Source: a virus (lineage: Duplodnaviria; Caudoviricetes). Taken from it: DNA of 36,717 nt. The notes under the pieces are model-generated. The model saw only the letters and a program-made list of their open reading frames with translations. It was not told where the DNA came from and did no database searches. Positions 17,043 to 36,717 of this stretch are shown one piece after another. Position 1 is the stretch's first letter, and each line of letters starts with the position of its first letter. The translations under genes and the position numbers were made by a program. The stretch is taken from positions 1-36,717 of IMG/VR virus record IMGVR_UViG_3300047400_000088. One strand, written 5' to 3'.

Positions 17043-17345
17043 ATGGAAAATGTACCTACCGAAAACAACTCGAATGGCAATGGCGAAGCCCACGGCACAG
17101 ATTTTTCTTGGGCCCTTTACGCGCTGAAAGGCGGAAAAAAGGTAGCCCGATCAGGTTGGAATGGATCAGGAATGTTTCTTTGGCTATGCAAACACACGCC
17201 AGATGCAATATTTCAGATTGATTTTAACCATTCATATCCCGTTGGCGATTACATCGTCATTAAAACTGCACAGGGAACCGTAGAATCAGGATGGCGCCCC
17301 ACTTCCGCAGATATGCTGGCAGAAGATTGGGTTGTGGTTGAATAA
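17043..17345 (+). CDS. DUF2829 family protein (Tad2-like anti-defence sponge family)
   Basis: 'FSWAL.ALK.GKKVARSGWNG.GMF' and 'W.PT..DMLAEDW' are the DUF2829 signature. Confidence 0.8.
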   Translation: MENVPTENNSNGNGEAHGTDFSWALYALKGGKKVARSGWNGSGMFLWLCKHTPDAIFQIDFNHSYPVGDYIVIKTAQGTVESGWRPTSADMLAEDWVVVE

Positions 17346-24147: not shown

Positions 24148-24859
24148 CGCGATGCAGTCGCCGCTGGTGAAGGACAGTACGGATCGGGAGTTGGGTCAGG
24201 CGCTGGTGCAGATCGCCTTCCTGACTGGATCGGCCGCGCCTTCGCAGGATATCGCCCTGCCGCTGGTTGCCTTCATCCGCAAGACCTTCCCGCTAATCCG
24301 GGCCGGGGAGCTCGCTTTGGCCGTTGAGATGGATATTGCCGGCAGGTTCGGTGAGGCCCGTGAGCCGTTCAACAACATCAGCCCAAAGTACCTGCAAGCG
24401 GTGATGCAGCGATACGAGGCAAGCATTCGCCAGGACTACTGGAAGGAGTGGCAGGCAAATAACAATACCATTAAGGAGCCAACGCTGGAAGAGAAGGAAG
24501 AAGGCAACCGTAAGTGGGTTGCCAGGTTGAAGGAAGAAATAAATGCATGTATTGAAGATGGCAGAACGCCTCGATGGATAACCGAGTGTTATCGCTATTT
24601 GGTTAAGAACGGATTGATTGCGCTGAAGAAAGAAGATACAGCACCGCTGTGGGAGCGAGCCAAAGAGGCGCGTAGGGTTGAACTGAAGCAGAAGCTATCG
24701 AGTGGTGCCGCCTTCGCAGAGATCGCGCACATTAAAAACACACTCGCAAGGTACGATGAGGGTCACGTTGGTGATTTTGACCGCTATGCACTTTCGTTCA
24801 AAGCGAAGGAGTTAGCCGTAATGGATTGGATTACATCACGGAATGGGGAGGTGATATGA
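24035..24859 (+). CDS. Putative helicase loader / replication accessory protein
   Basis: Follows the initiator in the lambda O-P position; helical, 274 aa. Confidence 0.45.
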   Translation: METSIAKQQERTSSPLPVQQTSFAASLTRRPELQQVHNAMQSPLVKDSTDRELGQALVQIAFLTGSAAPSQDIALPLVAFIRKTFPLIRAGELALAVEMDIAGRFGEAREPFNNISPKYLQAVMQRYEASIRQDYWKEWQANNNTIKEPTLEEKEEGNRKWVARLKEEINACIEDGRTPRWITECYRYLVKNGLIALKKEDTAPLWERAKEARRVELKQKLSSGAAFAEIAHIKNTLARYDEGHVGDFDRYALSFKAKELAVMDWITSRNGEVI

Positions 24860-24887
24860 CCATAGGTGACAAAAAATCTATTTAACT

Positions 24888-24962
24888 ATCAATGAGTTAT
24901 GAAGACTTTGAAAAATAGTTGTAAATATATTTGTATTATATCAAATACTTGGTGTATATTTG
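24888..24962 (+). promoter_or_regulatory. Bacteroidota promoter driving the modification island
   Basis: TTTG at 24930-24933, 21-nt spacer, TATATTTG at 24955-24962; shares upstream boxes with the promoter at 18122. Confidence 0.8.
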
Positions 24963-24994
24963 TTGCATAAATCAAAAAAAGTGAAATTGATTCG

Positions 24995-25177
24995 ATGAAA
25001 AAAGCAAAGAACATACACCTAACGGAAGAAGCGATAAAAGCACTTACTATTAAGGCAATAGAACACGGTTCTAATTTTAAGAACTACGTAGAAAGTAAGT
25101 TAGAAGCACTCGCCCAAGTATCTTACGGCTTTGCCGAAAAGAGGAAGAAAAAAAACACAATTAAAAATAAAATTTGA
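24995..25177 (+). CDS. Ribbon-helix-helix regulator
   Basis: 'KNIHLTEEAIKALTIKAIE.G.NFKNYVE..LE' pattern. Confidence 0.75.
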   Translation: MKKAKNIHLTEEAIKALTIKAIEHGSNFKNYVESKLEALAQVSYGFAEKRKKKNTIKNKI

Positions 25178-25181
25178 CTTT

Positions 25182-25442
25182 ATGAATATATTGCAACGAG
25201 CCGATAGCATAGTTAATGCTAGACTAGAGGAAAATCATAGGAATTACGGTGATTTCAACGAATCAATGCAAAGGATGGCTAATATTTTTAATGCATTGAC
25301 CGGCCATAACTTGTCTGTAAAGGATATGTTTATCGCGATGGTTGCTTTGAAATTTTCGCGCGAGTCATTTTCACACAAAGAAGATAATTTGCTGGACGCT
25401 GTAGCATATATCGGTGCACTAAATAACTACTTAAATTCATGA
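25182..25442 (+). CDS. DUF6378-like helical protein
   Basis: 'IL..A..IVN.R......YG......RMA...MVALK.SR....K.DN..D..AY' pattern; start reassigned to ATG 25182. Confidence 0.7.
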   Translation: MNILQRADSIVNARLEENHRNYGDFNESMQRMANIFNALTGHNLSVKDMFIAMVALKFSRESFSHKEDNLLDAVAYIGALNNYLNS

Positions 25443-26296
25443 AGACAGGTATCGTTGGGGTTATCAATAATCCGGCAACATCTATTAATTCACATTCAGC
25501 GGGAATGGTGAATATCGTCTCTAAGTTGTTTAATGCCGACGTCTTGACTGAGAACGATAATTGGGATGAATACGAAAGACTCATCATCTACCATGGCGTA
25601 AATTTTGTGCGAGGATCGTATAATATTATCGGCGGGATGAATGATAAGATTATTTGCCGAGCAGGTAAAGTTGCAAAATTTAATGGGCATCTATATTCAT
25701 TAGATGGTTTTCAATTAAATGATTTTTCGAACAAAAGAAAATTAAAACTATATGATAATCATGCGACTATTGCCGAGATAGAACTCCCGCATAGAGATAA
25801 ACTACTAATTGGAGATAGTCATTCCGTGTCGGTCTGGAGGGATATTTCTTTCACCATACAAAGAATGGATGGAAAAACATTGTATGGTTTTTTGAAGAAC
25901 CCTATTGTTGCTGATTATTATTACTTTGGCAACATTGATGTTAGGTTTCATTTAGCGCGCCAAGTTGATCCTATTGATGCAACCAAAGATCTTGTAAAAA
26001 GATACATTGCACATGCTAAAATAAACAACGCGACTGTGACATGTTTGCTTCCGGTTGAAAATGAGGATCGCAAAATACCTTCGACTGGATTGTATAAGAA
26101 AAAACCATTTTATGGGTCAAGAGAACTACGTTCTAGGTTAGTTGAGGTGTTTAACAGTGAACTCCTTAGCTCTGGATTGGTTGTTCATCAATGGCCAATA
26201 AGATGGTATGATGATATAAGTTATTATCAATCAGAGGTGATGGAACCAAAACAGTCGGTGCATATCAGGCCAAAATATTACGCTAACAATATATAG
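25439..26296 (+). CDS. Hybrid protein: T4 beta-glucosyltransferase-like N-domain plus SGNH-like domain (putative acyltransferase/esterase)
   Basis: N-terminus MKTGIVGVINN...EYERLII..N....NIIGG; C-terminal half IGDSHS, FGNID, SVH. Confidence 0.5.
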   Translation: MKTGIVGVINNPATSINSHSAGMVNIVSKLFNADVLTENDNWDEYERLIIYHGVNFVRGSYNIIGGMNDKIICRAGKVAKFNGHLYSLDGFQLNDFSNKRKLKLYDNHATIAEIELPHRDKLLIGDSHSVSVWRDISFTIQRMDGKTLYGFLKNPIVADYYYFGNIDVRFHLARQVDPIDATKDLVKRYIAHAKINNATVTCLLPVENEDRKIPSTGLYKKKPFYGSRELRSRLVEVFNSELLSSGLVVHQWPIRWYDDISYYQSEVMEPKQSVHIRPKYYANNI

Positions 26297-27265
26297 ATGA
26301 CGATCAACAAGCACGTTTTAGAGGCCTTAGATGAGTATCACGAGAGGAGTTTGCTCATGCAGGGGGCGCGTTATGATAAGACCATTGACGTAACAAGTAA
26401 GCAACTAAAAGATATGGTCAATGATGACTTGATTTTTTATGTACCAATCTATGACATGCTTGATAGAAAATATGCAGCATTTTCGTCGTTTCCGGAAGCC
26501 CTTCGCCTAAGAGAGAGTGATCCCAAAGGATATGGTATAAAGTACAAAGATCATAACGTGCAAGAAGGCATTGATCACTTGATGTTGCTATATTTGTTCA
26601 GACTATGTGGGTCAGGCATTAACTATAAGCCGCAATCCCATGGATTTGGCAACTTCTGGATATCAAACATGGTATTAGAAGGTAAATACACTTACAAAGA
26701 ATGGCTAAACTCAATTCCTGAGGCGAAGTTTAGTGATAACAAAGGTTATATGCTGCCACAATTCACGATTGGCCTTAGAAATTTTATTTTGCAACACTCC
26801 GAGGATCTTGTCGCGTATATGTATGACGCCATGTTGAGTCGTACAACACCGATGTCTATTATTGAGTTGGTTGATACCGGAAATGCGTGGATGAACAATT
26901 TAGGGTTTAACAAAACAACATTTGTGTTAAGTGCCTTTGCGGCTGACGTTGCTGAGTATTATCCAAAATTAATTGATCAATGGTCGATGATCTATGCAGG
27001 AACTAATGCCAGGCGTTGCATTAGAGCTATATTTGGAAAATCATCACAATTTGATGCGATAGATTTTCTTAGCAAAAGATACAACGCTACGCCATACTCT
27101 ATAGAGGACTCAAGACTATGTGATCCAGTGCGATATTTTTTAGAATATCAATCTAAGTATCATATAGAGAATAACGATGGTGTTATCTATAAAAATAATT
27201 CAATATTAAAGAAAACATGGACACTGGACGAGTACCAAGATTTTACTCTACGACTTCGGGGGTAA
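26297..27265 (+). CDS. aGPT-Pplase / 5-hmdU DNA kinase (HMUDK)-like helical protein
   Basis: 'DDLI..VPIYDMLDR', 'LFRL', 'F....FAAD...Y...GTNARR.I..IF', 'IED..LCD..RY' match the family's conserved blocks. Confidence 0.65.
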   Translation: MTINKHVLEALDEYHERSLLMQGARYDKTIDVTSKQLKDMVNDDLIFYVPIYDMLDRKYAAFSSFPEALRLRESDPKGYGIKYKDHNVQEGIDHLMLLYLFRLCGSGINYKPQSHGFGNFWISNMVLEGKYTYKEWLNSIPEAKFSDNKGYMLPQFTIGLRNFILQHSEDLVAYMYDAMLSRTTPMSIIELVDTGNAWMNNLGFNKTTFVLSAFAADVAEYYPKLIDQWSMIYAGTNARRCIRAIFGKSSQFDAIDFLSKRYNATPYSIEDSRLCDPVRYFLEYQSKYHIENNDGVIYKNNSILKKTWTLDEYQDFTLRLRG

Positions 27266-28065
27266 ATAGCGATGCTATCTACACTAAGGATGAATATCTT
27301 GAAATGGTTAAAGACTTCGAGAGTTCGTTTCCAAGTCCTATTGTAGATGACTTTGATGGACGAATAATTGTACGTGAAGATCTTCTGGAAGTTGGTTCCA
27401 AAGCCAGGGCAGGTGAAGCGTTGATATCCTCCGTAGATAATGATACTATCGTGTATGTACAGCCAAGATTCGGATTTGCAGGCATATCTCTAACTAAACT
27501 ATGTAAAATGTACAGTAAAAAGCTCGTGCTTTTTATGCCTGCTTCCAAGGAAGTATCTGAGCACCAAGCATATTGCATTGAGCATGGCTGTGATGCACAT
27601 TTTTATCGTGTAGCCGCAATGCCAAATTTGAATCGCATCGCGAAAGCATATGCTAAAGATACAAATTCTTTTTTTATACCGCTAGGATTGCGTCATAAGC
27701 TCGTTACGGCAATGATCATTAAGACAGCGTGTGAAATAGAAGAGCCTAAAAGATTTTGGACAGCATTCTCAACTGGTGTCTTAAATCGTGCCTTGCAAAT
27801 CGCGTGGCCTAATTCAGAAGCTTATGGTCTTGCCGTAGCTAGAAATATTAAAGATGGTGAGAAGGGTAGGGCAACAATCATTGGTCACTATCAATATTTT
27901 GAACAGAATAGTAAAATCATTCCACCGTATGCCAGCGCGTTAAATTACGATGCAAAAGTGTGGGAATACTTACAAGAAGGGGACTTATTTTGGAACGTGG
28001 CAGGCAACATAAAGTCTAGTATAAATAAAACAAACATAAACTCAAACGTAAAATGGAAAAAATGA
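27217..28065 (+). CDS. PLP-dependent fold-type II enzyme (DNA-modification decarboxylase-like)
   Basis: 'VREDL...GSKAR' (Schiff-base Lys), 'FIPLGL', 'STGVL', 'NYDAKVW', 'LFWNVAG' motifs. Confidence 0.85.
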   Translation: MDTGRVPRFYSTTSGVNSDAIYTKDEYLEMVKDFESSFPSPIVDDFDGRIIVREDLLEVGSKARAGEALISSVDNDTIVYVQPRFGFAGISLTKLCKMYSKKLVLFMPASKEVSEHQAYCIEHGCDAHFYRVAAMPNLNRIAKAYAKDTNSFFIPLGLRHKLVTAMIIKTACEIEEPKRFWTAFSTGVLNRALQIAWPNSEAYGLAVARNIKDGEKGRATIIGHYQYFEQNSKIIPPYASALNYDAKVWEYLQEGDLFWNVAGNIKSSINKTNINSNVKWKK

Positions 28066-28364
28066 ACCTAACAAATGAATTTGAACCAGTAAGACAATGG
28101 GCAATCAACAGGTCACTGTACAAACAGGGCGATGTTAAAACGCAGTTTGTAAAACTCTTAGAAGAAGTTGGAGAGTTGTCGAGTGCTATTTTGAAAAACA
28201 ATGACGCCGAAACAATAGATGCCGTAGGCGACTGTGTTATAGTGTTAACAAACCTTGCTGCTTTGAAGGGGTATAATATAGAGGACTGTATTAACGCAGC
28301 ATTTTCGGTCATAGCAAAAAGAAAGGGAAAAATGGAAAATGGCACATTTGTCAAAGAAAAGTAA
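28053..28364 (+). CDS. MazG-like dNTP pyrophosphohydrolase
   Basis: 'KLLEEVGEL', 'DAVGD', 'I..RKG.M.NG.FVKE' motifs. Confidence 0.9.
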   Translation: MEKMNLTNEFEPVRQWAINRSLYKQGDVKTQFVKLLEEVGELSSAILKNNDAETIDAVGDCVIVLTNLAALKGYNIEDCINAAFSVIAKRKGKMENGTFVKEK

Positions 28365-28755
28365 ATCGCGTTTACTTTACAGTAATATTGCTCGCGCTGT
28401 GGCTGAATGTTCTATGGCGGTACGCGAGAAAGTGGGTGCAGTAATCGTGCGCGATGGCAACATATTGTCTTATGGATACAATGGAACGTTGCCAGGAACT
28501 GACAACACATGTGAAAATAATAATAAAACAAAGAAAGACGTAGTCCATGCCGAGATTAATGCAATAGCTAAGTGTGCAAGATCAACGGTTAGCACAGATG
28601 GGGCCGAGTTGTATTGCACACTATCTCCGTGCGAGGAATGCGCGAAACTTATTGTGCAATCCGGGATTATTGCCGTCTATTACACAAAGGAGTACAGGGA
28701 TACCAGTGGACTAGAATTATTGTTAAAATCAAAAGTAAAATATGGGAAAATTTAG
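28339..28755 (+). CDS. dCMP deaminase
   Basis: 'KVGAVIV....GYNG', HAEINAI and SPCEEC zinc motifs. Confidence 0.93.
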   Translation: MAHLSKKSKSRLLYSNIARAVAECSMAVREKVGAVIVRDGNILSYGYNGTLPGTDNTCENNNKTKKDVVHAEINAIAKCARSTVSTDGAELYCTLSPCEECAKLIVQSGIIAVYYTKEYRDTSGLELLLKSKVKYGKI

Positions 28756-29377
28756 CACAGCACAAGATGCTTTTGAATTTTATTACAAAAAGATATCAAC
28801 CAAAGGCGAGGCGTCTTCCGGCACTAGATATTTGCAAAACATCGGATTCTACATATCCAATCCTTTGCAAAATAAAATCAACACAAAATACAGGAATTGG
28901 AAAGAAGACTACGCGGCAACTGAATGGGAGTGGTATCTATCAAAGAATAGAAGCGTAAGCGAGATAAAGAAAAAAGCAAAGATATGGGACTCGATGCATC
29001 ACGGCGATGATATTGTCAACTCCAATTACGGGTATCAATGGGGCAGGAACAACCAACTCCAATATGTTATCGACGAGTTAATTAGGAATAAGGACTCTAG
29101 AAGGGCGGTTATTACCATATATGATGGTAAAGAACATGAGATGCACTCGCTAGACACGCCATGCACGTTAAATGTCGTGTTTAGTATATCAAATGAAAAG
29201 CTCAATATGTCTGTTCTTATGCGTTCAAATGATCTGTGGTATGGTTTTTGCAATGATCAATACTGTTTTAGTTTACTGTTAAAACTAATTGCAGATAAAT
29301 TAGGTATTGAAATTGGTTGGTATTATCATTTTGCCAATAACTTACATTTGTACGAAAACTTTTTGCATAGAGATTAA
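28742..29377 (+). CDS. Thymidylate synthase-superfamily enzyme, probably dCMP hydroxymethylase-type
   Basis: 'NSNYG', 'DSRRA', catalytic 'PC', 'MRSNDLWYGFCND', 'NLHLY'; Asp at the position of E. coli TS Asn177. Confidence 0.85.
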   Translation: MGKFSTAQDAFEFYYKKISTKGEASSGTRYLQNIGFYISNPLQNKINTKYRNWKEDYAATEWEWYLSKNRSVSEIKKKAKIWDSMHHGDDIVNSNYGYQWGRNNQLQYVIDELIRNKDSRRAVITIYDGKEHEMHSLDTPCTLNVVFSISNEKLNMSVLMRSNDLWYGFCNDQYCFSLLLKLIADKLGIEIGWYYHFANNLHLYENFLHRD

Positions 29378-29391
29378 TTCAATCAGTAATC

Positions 29392-31194
29392 GTGTCATCC
29401 CTTGTAAATATCATTTGCAGTGATCCTGAGTATTTACAGGCATGTAAAACTATCACTAAGGGTTCAGCGCTTGCCGATGATCTATACCAAGAGGTCATCC
29501 TTTGCCTGCTAGAAAAGAGCGAAACAAAGCAGCGCGAGATCGCAGAAGGTGGATATATCAAACTTTGGTTCGCCAAAACGGCATGGCAAATGTGGACGAA
29601 TGAAAGGTCAAGTTTTAGTAGGATACATCGCGGCAAACTTGGCATCATACAATCTTTCGAGAATTATCAATTTGCAAGCCCAGGGACTGACGACGAAGTG
29701 GAACCCCGTGACGAGTATGACTGCCACTCGTCCGATATCAATAACGCCGAACCCGATGATCGCCGCGACATCGAGGAAGCCCTCGCGCTGCTCGAGGGCG
29801 ATGGCAACTACACGCAGTCTTGGTTTGATCGCAAGATTCTTGATGTATATATGGAGTATGGTAGTGCCCGCGAGGTCAGTGAGCGTACCGGCATTATAAG
29901 ACCAACAATAGATGCAAGCATACGAAGAAGCAAATCACGATTAAAAAGAAAGATGGAACATAAGCACATCCGCATCCTTATCGTCTGCCCACGAGAATAT
30001 TCGGGCAGCGACTTCTACCGAACCCTCATCCCGCATCTGCACCTGAACTTCAATCACCCGGACGACTTCGAGGTAGTGCAGATACCCACAATGGACGCGG
30101 AGCACATCCAAACGCCCGAAGGCAACGTGCCGCTATTTGAATACCTGAATGGCTTTCACATCGCGGTATTTAGCCGGCAGTTGTCGCACTACGGCAACAG
30201 CAAGAAGATAGCCGACGGCCTGCGCGCGATGGGTACGCGCATTGTGCTGGACATCGATGACTATTGGCATGTGCCAAGTACGCACGTTCTTTATGAAGAT
30301 TACCGGGCGATGAATTTGCCGGCACATCTGATCGCCGACATGCGCTTGGCAGACCACATCACCACCACTACGAGCATCCTTGCCGATGAGATACGCAAGG
30401 TGAACACCAATGTAAGCGTGTTACCCACGGCCTATGACCCCGACCGGCAATACATGCAGCCCGGCCACACCACATACTCACGTACCCGCATCGGATGGAT
30501 GGGTGGTATCTGCCATCGCGACGACATCGACCTATTGAGTGCGGGCATTCAAAAGTTGCACAGCGACAAGAGCCTGGAGGGCCGATATCAGCTAATCCTG
30601 GGTGGCTTTAACCTCCAGCAAAGCCGATGGGAGCCAGGCAAGCCTGATTCAGATGGGCGAGTGATGTACGAGCCGGTGGTCCTTCCATTTTGGCAGCAGG
30701 AGTACGTCCATTTCGAGCGTGTATTCACCAACGACTACAAGGCAGTCGGCGAGCAGTACATGAAGCACCTGCATCGGGGCAATACACTTGGGTGGGATGA
30801 TGAGGAGAATGAGCCATACCGCCGCATATATGGCCGCCCGGCGGGCGAATACATGCAGGGGTATGCCGACTTCGACATTGCGCTGGCCCCATTGAAGGCA
30901 AACAAGTTCAGCCGGTGTAAGAGTCAACTGAAGCTGATCGAGGCAGGGTTCTTCAAACTGCCCCTGATTTGCTCGGCCACGGAGCCGTACACCATCGACG
31001 GCAAGCATGGTCACAACTGCCTGATGGTTCAGGAAAGCAAGGGACACAAGGACTGGTACCGCTGCATGAAGATGCTCCTGAAGGACGAAAGCCTGCGCCG
31101 GGAGCTGGGCGAGAACCTGCACAAGGACGTTCAGAAGTACCACATCCGCGAGCAGATCGGCGCTCGCATTGACCTATACAAGCACCTCTACTGA
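29392..31194 (+). CDS. Fusion of an ECF-like sigma-70 factor (aa 1-187) and a GT-B glycosyltransferase (aa 188-600)
   Basis: 'ADDLYQEVIL' region 2; 'SAREVSERTGI...TI...IRR' region 4 HTH; then 'DIDDYW', 'RIGWMGG..H..D', 'DIALAPL...F..CKS.LK.IEAG'. Confidence 0.85.
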   Translation: MSSLVNIICSDPEYLQACKTITKGSALADDLYQEVILCLLEKSETKQREIAEGGYIKLWFAKTAWQMWTNERSSFSRIHRGKLGIIQSFENYQFASPGTDDEVEPRDEYDCHSSDINNAEPDDRRDIEEALALLEGDGNYTQSWFDRKILDVYMEYGSAREVSERTGIIRPTIDASIRRSKSRLKRKMEHKHIRILIVCPREYSGSDFYRTLIPHLHLNFNHPDDFEVVQIPTMDAEHIQTPEGNVPLFEYLNGFHIAVFSRQLSHYGNSKKIADGLRAMGTRIVLDIDDYWHVPSTHVLYEDYRAMNLPAHLIADMRLADHITTTTSILADEIRKVNTNVSVLPTAYDPDRQYMQPGHTTYSRTRIGWMGGICHRDDIDLLSAGIQKLHSDKSLEGRYQLILGGFNLQQSRWEPGKPDSDGRVMYEPVVLPFWQQEYVHFERVFTNDYKAVGEQYMKHLHRGNTLGWDDEENEPYRRIYGRPAGEYMQGYADFDIALAPLKANKFSRCKSQLKLIEAGFFKLPLICSATEPYTIDGKHGHNCLMVQESKGHKDWYRCMKMLLKDESLRRELGENLHKDVQKYHIREQIGARIDLYKHLY

Positions 31195-32111
31195 TGAAAT
31201 ACGTTTTTATCTGCGCGGATGACTGGGCCAACCTGCAACACGAGTTGGCGCAATCGCTACGCGCTGCCGTAACGTCGGATGACACGGTGCAGGCCGTGAA
31301 ACTGCGGTCGCACCCATTCGGGTATGACCACCAATGCCCAATGCGCACGGTGGAGCAGATGGCAGAAATGTCCGCCGATGCGGACGCGGTATTCATCACG
31401 CACAGCGATCACGAGCTATTGCCATACGTGAACCGCAGTAGCCGGATCATCCCCATTCACACAGGAACAAAGTACCGGCAGAACGCGCAGGCGATCAATG
31501 AGGCGTTCTCATTCACCGATCTACAACTGACCGACCAGACCGAGTTCTTCGGTCTTGGCGCAAAGAATCTACGGTACATCACCGTGCCGGTAACAATCGA
31601 CAAGTGGCAGCTATTCAGCCATGAATCCAGCCGCCCCTACATCGTGGGCCACTACCCCAGCAACCCACACGTGAAGGGAACCGATCGCATCATTACGATG
31701 ATGGCGCAGGTACGCACTCCCCATCGCTTTGATTACAGCACGACGCGGCTGCCTCACCCGGATCACCTGCGGCGCATTGCCAACTCAGACATCTATGTGG
31801 AGTTGTTCGCCCCGCAACAGGGTGGTCGCGAATACGGATGCTACGGCGTTACGGCCTTTGAGGCGGCAGCAATGGGTCGCGTCGTGGTTACGCAGAACCT
31901 TCACCCTGAGATATACGAGGAGGAGTACGGCTCCTGCCCCTTCATCCTTGCCGAGAATGAGGGCGATTTCATCGCCAAGATGGACTATGTACTGAACATG
32001 CCACCGGCAGAACTGCGCGACCGGCAGACGAAGCACTACATGAAGATGAAGGAATACCACAGCCACAATGAAACCGGCCTGCGCATCCTAAACTACCTGA
32101 ATAAGCCATGA
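31194..32111 (+). CDS. GT-B (GT4-like) glycosyltransferase
   Basis: 'H.PSN...KGT', 'DIYVE', 'YGVTAFEAAAMGRVVV' motifs. Confidence 0.8.
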   Translation: MKYVFICADDWANLQHELAQSLRAAVTSDDTVQAVKLRSHPFGYDHQCPMRTVEQMAEMSADADAVFITHSDHELLPYVNRSSRIIPIHTGTKYRQNAQAINEAFSFTDLQLTDQTEFFGLGAKNLRYITVPVTIDKWQLFSHESSRPYIVGHYPSNPHVKGTDRIITMMAQVRTPHRFDYSTTRLPHPDHLRRIANSDIYVELFAPQQGGREYGCYGVTAFEAAAMGRVVVTQNLHPEIYEEEYGSCPFILAENEGDFIAKMDYVLNMPPAELRDRQTKHYMKMKEYHSHNETGLRILNYLNKP

Positions 32112-32221
32112 CCCCCAACGTCCAACCACGCGACCCGCGCCGGTTCTCATACCCGGCAGCCATTGCATTTAGCCTGCTCATGTGGGCAATAATCTTAAAA
32201 CTGTCAGGATGCCATCTGTAA
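32108..32221 (+). CDS. Small membrane peptide (37 aa)
   Basis: ATGA-coupled; hydrophobic AAIAFSLLMWAIIL. Confidence 0.4.
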   Translation: MTPNVQPRDPRRFSYPAAIAFSLLMWAIILKLSGCHL

Positions 32222-33021
32222 CCATTCTTTTACTCACCATTGACCGTTACGAGGTAACGAGCAAGGTAATCACGCAGGCCCTGCTGAATGCCGGCCACAC
32301 ATTCACGCTGCATGTGCATGACAACGGCAGCAGCGACGTTGCCATTCAGAAATGGGGGCTCGACCAGTCGCGCCAGTACAACGGCAAGTACACGCGCAGC
32401 GAATCCAACATCGGCACCACGCAGGCCCTCAACATCATGATGCGCGGCACCAATTCCGATTACTATGTTTTCATAGGTAATGACATTGCGCTGCCTCCCG
32501 GATGGCTGAAGGCAATGGTAGAATACGCCGAAGCCATACCGAACAGCGGCATGGTGGGCATCAATTGGCGACCGCTGGAGTACCCGGCAGCCGTGGTGAA
32601 TGGTAAACTCACATGGCCCAGCAAGCGCATCTTCGGCGACGTGCTGTTCGGCAAGCATGTACGGCAAGCCATCGGCGAACTGTGCGAGGACTACGGGCCT
32701 TATGGTCTTTGGGATAGCGATACGGCGGTGCGGTGTGAGATGGCCGGGTTATTGAACTACTACATCGCCGACCTTCGTAGCGAACACATGACCAACGACG
32801 TAGGCGAGGACAGCGACTACCGGCGCATGAAGGACGCATCGCTATCGACAGCCAAACCCATCTACTCTGCCAATGTTGAGCAGTACAAGACTACGGGTCT
32901 AATAAATTTGAGCTATGAAAAAGGATACAAAGAAACCCGGCCAGCATGGTACGGCAAAGATTCGGGGGTGGATCAGCCTTCAGGAACAGGCCCCGAAGGA
33001 CTACAAGGCCAAGTCGGTTAA
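32209..33021 (+). CDS. GT-A (GT2 family) glycosyltransferase
   Basis: 'VTILLLT..R', 'DNGSSD', 'NIG...ALN', 'GND' (DxD variant), 'YGLWDSD' motifs. Confidence 0.85.
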   Translation: MPSVTILLLTIDRYEVTSKVITQALLNAGHTFTLHVHDNGSSDVAIQKWGLDQSRQYNGKYTRSESNIGTTQALNIMMRGTNSDYYVFIGNDIALPPGWLKAMVEYAEAIPNSGMVGINWRPLEYPAAVVNGKLTWPSKRIFGDVLFGKHVRQAIGELCEDYGPYGLWDSDTAVRCEMAGLLNYYIADLRSEHMTNDVGEDSDYRRMKDASLSTAKPIYSANVEQYKTTGLINLSYEKGYKETRPAWYGKDSGVDQPSGTGPEGLQGQVG

Positions 33022-36303: not shown

Positions 36304-36717
36304 AGGCGAGATCATACAGCGCACCATGAATGAGGTGCTGAACGACTACGGGGAGCGTGTCGTGGCGGCCCTGAAGGACAACCTGGAGTTTCGAAAGAAG
36401 CTGGCCAGCCGTCGCCTGTCGGATAGCATCAGGTTCAAGATCATGAGCCTTGTGGATACGACCACCTTCGAACTATCGCTGGCCGATTACTACAAATTCG
36501 TAGATAAAGGGCGCGGCCCCACCAAGAGCGGAGGCGGCCCGATAAAAGGCCCGCTGGACTGGGGAAAGCCCAGCCTGCGCAAGAACATCCTGCAATGGAT
36601 GACCTACAAGGGCATCCAACCGAGCGCACAGCAGGGATACGGAAAGAACAAGGCAGCGGGCAAGGTCAGCACGGCTACCGCGCTGGACAAGGCGCGCGAG
36701 ATGGCCTACCTCATCAG
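36296..36717 (+). CDS. Neck/tail-completion-type protein (HK97 gp10-like), continuing to 314 across the junction
   Basis: MAEGEII...ASRRLSDSIRF...YYKFVDKGR.P...; open to the window end. Confidence 0.6.
   Translation, partial: MAEGEIIQRTMNEVLNDYGERVVAALKDNLEFRKKLASRRLSDSIRFKIMSLVDTTTFELSLADYYKFVDKGRGPTKSGGGPIKGPLDWGKPSLRKNILQWMTYKGIQPSAQQGYGKNKAAGKVSTATALDKAREMAYLI
36552..36717. repeat. Terminal direct repeat (right copy)
   Basis: Matches 1-166 with one synonymous difference. Confidence 0.95.

Follow-up and report, generated by a model that had tools for sequence, protein, structure and literature searches.

The window analysed here is an entire virus record (IMGVR_UViG_3300047400_000088; Duplodnaviria, Caudoviricetes; 36,717 bases, completeness rated 100%), the initial 127 bases of which repeat at position 36552. 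At positions 25182–29377 it carries a cassette of seven genes (g1–g7), all on the + strand, which very probably directs the hypermodification of cytosine in some form. In the ordered mechanism that we put forward, and consider about equally likely to hold or to fail, the protein g2 would esterify 5-hydroxymethylcytosine (5hmC) in DNA in place of a kinase, g3 would transfer a nucleophile to the activated base, and g4 would decarboxylate the adduct.

A Seven-Gene Cassette and Its Conservation

The genes of the cassette are as follows (aa, amino acids):

25182..25442, + strand: g1, DUF6378 protein, 86 aa (Pfam E 7e-13)
25439..26296, + strand: g2, beta-glucosyltransferase (BGT)-like N-domain and SGNH-fold domain, 285 aa (predicted structure, hhalign)
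26297..27265, + strand: g3, HhH-fold aGPT-Pplase-like protein, 322 aa (predicted structure, E270...C275 motif)
27217..28065, + strand: g4, fold-type II pyridoxal phosphate (PLP) enzyme, 282 aa (phrog_7093 E 4e-31; PALP Pfam 3e-4)
28062..28364, + strand: g5, MazG-like pyrophosphatase, 100 aa (Pfam 1e-5, PHROG)
28339..28755, + strand: g6, dCMP deaminase, 138 aa (Pfam E 2e-22)
28742..29377, + strand: g7, thymidylate synthase (TS) homologue, predicted dCMP hydroxymethylase, 211 aa (Pfam thymidylate synthase 4e-27)

The intergenic gaps are −4, 0, −49, −4, −26 and −14 bases, and the operon is real, as an earlier sequence-only reading of this DNA had claimed. The Pfam matches of g1, g5, g6 and g7 and the PHROG match of g4 agreed with the assignments made in that reading; the PALP match of g4 falls below the family cut-off, and g2 and g3, having no Pfam match, were assigned through predicted structures. 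Counts of promoters and terminators in the window were at chance level. The GC content of the cassette is 0.380, as compared with 0.529 in the remaining window, and the low-GC stretch runs from about 24800 to 29400; this drop indicates that the cassette was acquired as a block.

Comparisons of the open reading frames (ORFs) with Foldseek and hhalign and a survey of gene neighbourhoods were carried out, along the lines proposed in the sequence-only reading. Among the best 80 of 219 IMG/VR loci fetched with g3, many with incomplete flanks, the SGNH protein was encoded in 77, the PLP enzyme in 77, DUF6378 in 69, the TS in 65, the deaminase in 46 and MazG in 35, so that the linkage is not due to chance. 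Loci fetched by g2 alone contained an HhH gene in 143 of 163 cases (redundant set). Altogether 307 loci were merged at 90% into 125 clusters; the 80 loci fetched by g3 inflate the g3 counts given below, and the gene labels of the clusters come from profiles built on the same loci.

The Thymidylate Synthase Homologue and the Nucleotide Pool

The nearest solved relatives of g7 are MilA (E 6e-16) and T4 gp42 (E 1e-15). By the residue rule described for this family (PMC13326640), Asp at the position of ThyA N177 selects dCMP, an acidic residue at L143 directs hydroxymethylation and Asn at D169 directs hydroxylation. Residues D138, C141, D164 and D172 of g7 correspond to ThyA L143, C146, D169 and N177, and C141 and D172 align with C148 and D179 of the T4 enzyme. 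The same D/C/D/D signature was present in 114 of 114 full-length TSs among the 121 non-redundant TS ORFs of related modules (two further ones were partial with D/D, and five were too short for scoring). The cytosine-type signature noticed earlier was thereby confirmed throughout the module, and because of it hydroxymethyl-dCMP (hm-dCMP) is the expected product of g7. Asn at position 177 was found in M6 gp58, a dUMP hydroxymethylase, and in the nine scorable of ten co-encoded ThyA copies, whereas g7 has Asp instead. No Pfam match to TET/JBP or dUMP hydroxymethylase was obtained among 68 scanned proteins, 66 of them window ORFs. The closest TS from a cultured phage is that of Bacteroides phage BF486P2 (56% identity), which lies near a carbamoyltransferase gene.

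Pfam and similar scans of the window ORFs revealed no recognisable DNA polymerase and no deoxynucleoside monophosphate (dNMP) kinase, and the sole P-loop motif in the window belongs to the terminase; incorporation of the modified nucleotide would therefore need host kinases and polymerase. A TS homologue expressed alone in E. coli gave trace incorporation (PMC13326640), and substitution by 5hmC is probably partial.

The remaining small genes appear to be accessory. DUF6378 occurs in 98 of the 125 clusters and possibly serves to control the deoxynucleoside triphosphate (dNTP) pool; in eight loci g1 is replaced by Nmad1/DUF1599, and DUF6378 is found in none of these eight, while hhalign gave no significant homology of DUF6378 with Nmad1 (P 1.7) or, likewise, with MazG. 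The g5 protein is likely a dCTPase, and g6, which 5 of the 11 near-complete related records and 37 of the 125 clusters encode, likely feeds dTMP synthesis.

The HhH Protein and the PLP Enzyme

The g3 protein (374 relatives; model pLDDT 90.4) is predicted from its fold and motif to be a nucleophile:DNA transferase, AADT-like and yet of a separate clade. Its model matched ADDT-annotated viral models (Foldseek E 1e-10, TM 0.73) and, more weakly, the helical domain from PhiW-14, and HMUDK_hel occurs in 10–13% of the members of its Atlas neighbours. Residues E270, D271 and C275 are kept in 80 of 80 relatives. The catalytic pair of PaMx11 gp46 is E243 and C247 (PMC11472151), to which we liken E270 and C275 by motif: M6 gp51 has the Glu...Cys spacing of gp46, that of ViI gp247 is one residue longer, as in g3, and E-x(3,4)-C is kept in every HhH type of the family. 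The g3 protein itself gave no match to the Pfam ADDT or HMUDK_hel profiles (one of 59 relatives matched HMUDK_hel, E 0.002), and neither a search of cultured phages nor a single-sequence viral scan found a counterpart. Thus, of the label aGPT-Pplase/HMUDK-like given earlier to 26297–27265, the HhH/aGPT-Pplase fold was found, while the HMUDK likeness extends to the helical domain only, there being no kinase part.

The g4 protein belongs to phrog_7093, the PHROG of M6 gp52, with which it aligned over its full length (hhalign P 95.7), K62 falling on K36; this Schiff-base lysine is kept in 78 of 78 sequences. Acting on DNA-borne adducts, M6 gp52 and ViI gp226 are decarboxylases that require a free alpha-amine (PMC8989533). 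Because of this requirement, and because no recurring radical SAM gene was found in the related loci and hence no isomerase of that type, the amino acid would be expected to be linked through its side chain, by analogy with serine in ViI.

Two further observations concern this enzyme and its surroundings. In Erythrobacter phage R6L (L084:4816-7238) a g4-family PLP domain lies inside a ParB/DNA methyltransferase fusion. A gene of 187–189 aa downstream of the PLP gene (L096:5910-6479, also L020–L023, and the N-terminal part of P0247), once fused to g2, has by eye a Cys...His...Asp pattern and encodes a possible tailoring enzyme.

The BGT/SGNH Protein

The hybrid predicted earlier at 25439–26296 was recovered in the structural model of g2 (pLDDT 91.8). 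Residues 118–285 have an SGNH fold (VIA Z 11.7, rmsd 3.0 with 154 aligned residues, against SGNH esterases), and a weaker resemblance to BGT covers the N-terminal domain, residues 1 to about 110: residues 1–92 aligned with T4 BGT 1–102 (hhalign P 91, E 1e-6), only 1 of 2000 shuffles scoring higher, and 1bgt matched the model with a Foldseek E of 0.008. The motif N62-x-x-G-G was aligned on N70-F-F-G-G of BGT, a region which we take to handle the flipped base. As a whole, g2 is not a T4 beta-glucosyltransferase, the second GT-B domain and a PF09198 match being absent from it; its profile retrieved nothing from PDB sequences, and Foldseek against PDB gave no match with E<=0.001 for g2 or g3.

The g2 family comprises 477 clusters at 50% identity, and conservation was assessed in 136 of the best 150 sequences (<400 aa) together with the window protein. 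Residues S127 (136/136), H128, H171, R211, R231, E269 (134/134) and H275 (134/134) are invariant, and the block I Ser, the block II Gly (G145, 111/137) and the block V His of SGNH enzymes are present. The many fixed Arg and His residues suggest a phosphate-bearing donor or DNA as a ligand, and phosphoryl or other ester chemistry may take the place of acyl transfer. Most plausibly, g2 replaces a kinase and is predicted to esterify 5hmC in DNA.

The family was matched in 43 records of cultured phages (38 of Aeromonas, three of Tenacibaculum and two of Stenotrophomonas phages), and only three loci were found in prokaryote genomes, all on contigs of metagenome-assembled genomes.

Absence of a Recognisable DNA Kinase

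None of the 44 related records, made up of 43 virus records and 44RR2.8t, gave a match to the PF18748 kinase, and 11 of these virus records have a completeness of 90% or more; the controls M6 and ViI both matched. The surroundings of g2 were also scanned to a distance of 5 kb in 311 loci, and no small P-loop kinase recurred among them; 21 loci have a short P-loop-motif ORF, which resembles helicases, terminases and similar proteins, apart from two that resemble dNMP kinases. The sequence-only reading had pointed to a single aGPT-Pplase as the striking gap. That part did not stand, since 46 distant members of the locus clusters have a second HhH gene; the gap to be noted is the P-loop DNA kinase. 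An earlier survey of such systems chose its contigs via the DNA kinase (PMC8989533) and so could not have seen the present cassette family.

Modular Organization and Cultured Relatives

A g3-type HhH protein together with the PLP enzyme was encoded in 78 of the 125 clusters, the g3-type protein without PLP in 12, and the PLP enzyme alone in five; 23 had an inositol synthase, a HAD-like protein and an HMUDK_hel-type HhH protein, one had inositol genes with no HhH gene visible, and six had none of these. The inositol kit (24 clusters) never occurred with PLP or the g3-type HhH gene, and PLP was paired with the g3-type in 78 of 83 cases. On the proposed reading, the first enzyme is constant, and the transferase and nucleophile kit is exchangeable. 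Fusions of g2 to an HhH protein made up 10 of 14 long g2 relatives, in both orders and with two HhH types, and all five long g3 relatives are g2 fusions. With slightly less confidence than we place in the ordered mechanism itself, we regard the BGT–SGNH chimera as a phage platform, widespread in nature, for ester activation of 5hmC, to which exchangeable HhH proteins would add either an amino-acid-derived group or myo-inositol.

The sister module (24/125 clusters; L095:2386-4867, L186:10142-11335, L171:7562-8728) encodes myo-inositol-1-phosphate synthase, a HAD-like phosphatase, an HMUDK_hel-type HhH protein and sometimes an FkbM methyltransferase. This gene set points to a base bearing inositol or methyl-inositol, with the same mass as glucosyl-5hmC. 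The inositol kit occurs in 19 cultured-phage records, and the synthase in 16 records of Stenotrophomonas phages; in phage Mendera (L348:4101-9627) the synthase lies in a 7-deazaguanine cluster (GTP cyclohydrolase, QueC, QueE). Other variants include a second HhH paralogue (EDKTC), which 11 of the 125 clusters have between the g3-type gene and the PLP gene (L199:3352-4458, L109:2500-3465), and a TS fused to a g3-type HhH protein with no PLP gene nearby (L131:10095-11909 and five similar loci).

Among the cultured T4-like Aeromonas phages, 44RR2.8t has g2 fused to an inositol-type HhH protein beside an SGLT-type symporter, together with a D-type gene 42 and ThyA and without BGT. According to PMC2993671, phages 44RR, 31 and 25 have genes 42, 56, denB and alc and lack glucosyltransferases. 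Between motA and nrdC.10 the contents are swapped, the symporter and the g2–HhH fusion of 44RR2.8t (L081:4408-8388) standing against a sugar mutase, a 358-aa gene and g2 in phage 25 (L347:1668-4939). PLP and HhH genes had been expected as the neighbours of g2 in phage 25, wrongly, since the two genes there are that of the mutase and one without an assignment.

Proposed Mechanism and Alternatives

The mechanism that we propose would begin with the conversion of dCMP to hm-dCMP by g7, a step well supported by sequence, with g5, g6 and perhaps g1 altering the dNTP pool and the host kinases and polymerase placing the nucleotide into DNA. In the second and weakest step, the BGT-like domain of g2 would bind the base, and Ser127/His275 would acylate its hydroxyl, turning it into a leaving group. 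Cys275 of g3, as its fold and motif suggest, would then add to C6, the ester would leave, and an amino acid would attack the exocyclic methylene; g4, by homology, would finally remove CO2. Were serine the amino acid, the products would have masses of 344 u and then 300 u (computed from formulas and the ViI values), the latter being aminoethoxymethyl-dC, the cytosine counterpart of 5-NeOmdU. By analogy with the known systems, the likely role of the modification would be protection from host nucleases.

Several points weigh against this mechanism or parts of it. The link of g2 to BGT is of modest strength, and the conservation of D100 is unclear. The SGNH consensus has an oxyanion Asn in block III and an Asp in block V; block III of g2 reads G164-N-I-D167, with Ile in 133 of 136 sequences where Asn is usual, and in block V there is no Asp three residues before H275, E269 standing six before. 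Since neither of the two stands in its usual place, acyl transfer by g2 is tentative. Among solved chains compared with g3 by VIA, a queuine salvage hydrolase was the best (Z 9.8), and PaMx11 gp46 tied with an 8-oxoG glycosylase at Z 8.3; gp46 tops the Foldseek PDB list, yet with an E of 0.59. Alignments of the g3 families with M6 gp51 and gp55 and with ViI gp247 were not significant in hhalign. The TS is present in 77 of the 125 g2-cluster flanks and in 13 of 25 mostly partial records, and a kinase could be too divergent for PF18748. Phage 25 has g2 beside a UDP-galactopyranose mutase and the 358-aa gene, which reads as glycosyltransferase-like with no Pfam or PHROG match. No HhH gene of either type was detected in the genome of phage 25 or in that of PTm1, which has g2 and a second TS of the D169N hydroxylase type. 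Thus g2 can exist without the transferase. Moreover, a C5 methyltransferase joins thiols to 5hmC with no activation needed (PMC7176277), so an activator may be unnecessary. In the comparison of PMC8670742, aGPT-Pplase1 was only nominally enriched in cytosine-modified contigs (4 vs 34, corrected p 1), and PALP and inositol synthase were not enriched. Because of phages 25 and PTm1, the unactivated thiol coupling and the lacking contig enrichment, the activator role of g2 is evenly poised.

The same observations on phage 25 and PTm1 and the existence of cysteine-catalysed condensation with unactivated 5hmC would fit a scheme in which g3 couples the nucleophile directly to 5hmC with release of water and g4 decarboxylates the adduct. 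The g2 protein would work later or alongside, acylating the completed adduct (an amine, inositol or sugar) or capping further 5hmC sites with an ester that is the final product; terminal acetylation by PaMx11 gp48 and carbamoylation of 5hmC (PMC8670742) are precedents. We consider this unlikely, though it is the strongest competitor: a single acyltransferase with a near-invariant active site would have to accept amine, inositol and sugar adducts, the BGT-like domain of g2 points to 5hmC as the acceptor, and the characterised transferases of the g3 fold all need a leaving group. It is less probable still that activation and transfer proceed as proposed and g4 makes the nucleophile from a free small molecule by beta-replacement or elimination, in parallel with the inositol synthase and phosphatase of the sister module. 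The PLP and inositol genes are indeed mutually exclusive in the 125 clusters, and the nearest solved sequences to g4 are, weakly, cysteine synthases (E 0.01), but M6 gp52, whose family includes g4, is a decarboxylase shown to act on DNA.

Two further explanations seem very improbable. The sequence-only reading had left a choice between an amino-acid- or acyl-hypermodified cytosine, the branch supported here, and a modified thymine, for which g6 would deaminate hm-dCMP to hm-dUMP and 5-hydroxymethyluracil (5hmU) in DNA would be hypermodified. The deaminase gene does lie inside the operon, and the characterised aGPT-Pplase and PLP partners all act on 5hmU. Against the thymine route speak the lack of the deaminase in 6 of the 11 near-complete records (in one of the six the cassette is at the record end), the frequent co-encoding of dUTPase or ThyA in related loci, and 44RR2.8t, where the SGNH–HhH fusion accompanies gene 42 and the T4 cytosine-replacement set; also, contigs with modified cytosine carry TS, PRA-PH and deaminase genes together, the deaminase being part of the usual accessory set there (PMC8670742). 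Equally improbable is that free nucleotides, and not polymeric DNA, are the substrates of these enzymes, or that they form a glycosylase or salvage set. The nucleotide hydrolase and glycosylase matches of g3 and the lack of a detected phage dNMP kinase or polymerase would agree with this, while the Glu...Cys motif, the ADDT-type matches, the BGT-like domain and the gp52-type partner all belong to systems acting on DNA.

Neighbouring Genes

Apart from the cassette, the window genes include those of terminase, portal, recombinases and glycosyltransferases. Immediately upstream, at 24995–25177, lies a low-GC gene of 60 aa (phrog_8755), not detected in the 80 related loci, the product of which is a possible regulator. 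Downstream, at 29392–33021, are three glycosyltransferase genes of normal GC, the first carrying a fused ECF-sigma-like domain and having a BLAST match in just 9 of the 80 loci; they are probably outside the cassette. A Tad2-like anti-Thoeris protein is encoded at 17043–17345 (Pfam E 5e-23).

Comparison with Known Systems and Significance

The cassette resembles the pathways of ViI (5-NeOmdU), M6 (5-NedU) and PaMx11 (5-AcNmdU) in its TS-family hydroxymethylase, HhH Glu...Cys transferase and gp52-family PLP enzyme (PMC8989533, PMC11472151); in contrast to them, its TS is of the dCMP type, it has neither 5-HMUDK kinase nor radical SAM enzyme, and the BGT/SGNH protein stands instead. With T4 glucosylation (gp42, gp56, cd, beta-gt) it shares the dCMP hydroxymethylase signature, a pyrophosphatase, a deaminase and a domain like the BGT N-terminus, but the SGNH domain is in place of the UDP-glucose-binding half, and the window genome encodes no dNMP kinase or polymerase. 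The 5-carbamoyloxymethylcytosine phages (PMC8670742) have the same accessory genes and O-substitution of 5hmC, and BF486P2 has such genes; the cassette lacks their carbamoyltransferase and adds the HhH and PLP proteins. Closest in the g2 domain (29% identity) is ORF233c (phrog_17781) of 44RR2.8t, a gene-42 phage without BGT, with a fused HMUDK_hel-like HhH; there, however, the HhH is of the inositol-module type and a symporter takes the place of the PLP enzyme. No description of the cassette was found in the literature, though the 2013 paper naming the aGPT-Pplases may list such neighbourhoods.

In the literature consulted, cytosine is hypermodified by the addition of a sugar or a carbamoyl group, and the transfer of amino acids is limited to thymine and requires a DNA kinase; the cassette joins both branches and seems to be kinase-free. 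If the proposal is true, it would bring a new activation chemistry for DNA, new DNA-modifying enzymes and an amine handle on 5hmC for labelling, as well as a candidate activity for the clade-1 aGPT-Pplases, a member of which was dispensable in the M6 lysate reaction (PMC8989533). At least two undescribed bases would be added, of which the inositol base (419 u), isobaric with glucosyl-5hmC, would be easily misassigned. The cultured phage 44RR2.8t makes the g2 family testable, and the cassette family may provide an answer to what protects the gene-42 Aeromonas phages without glucosyltransferases, a question left open in PMC2993671.

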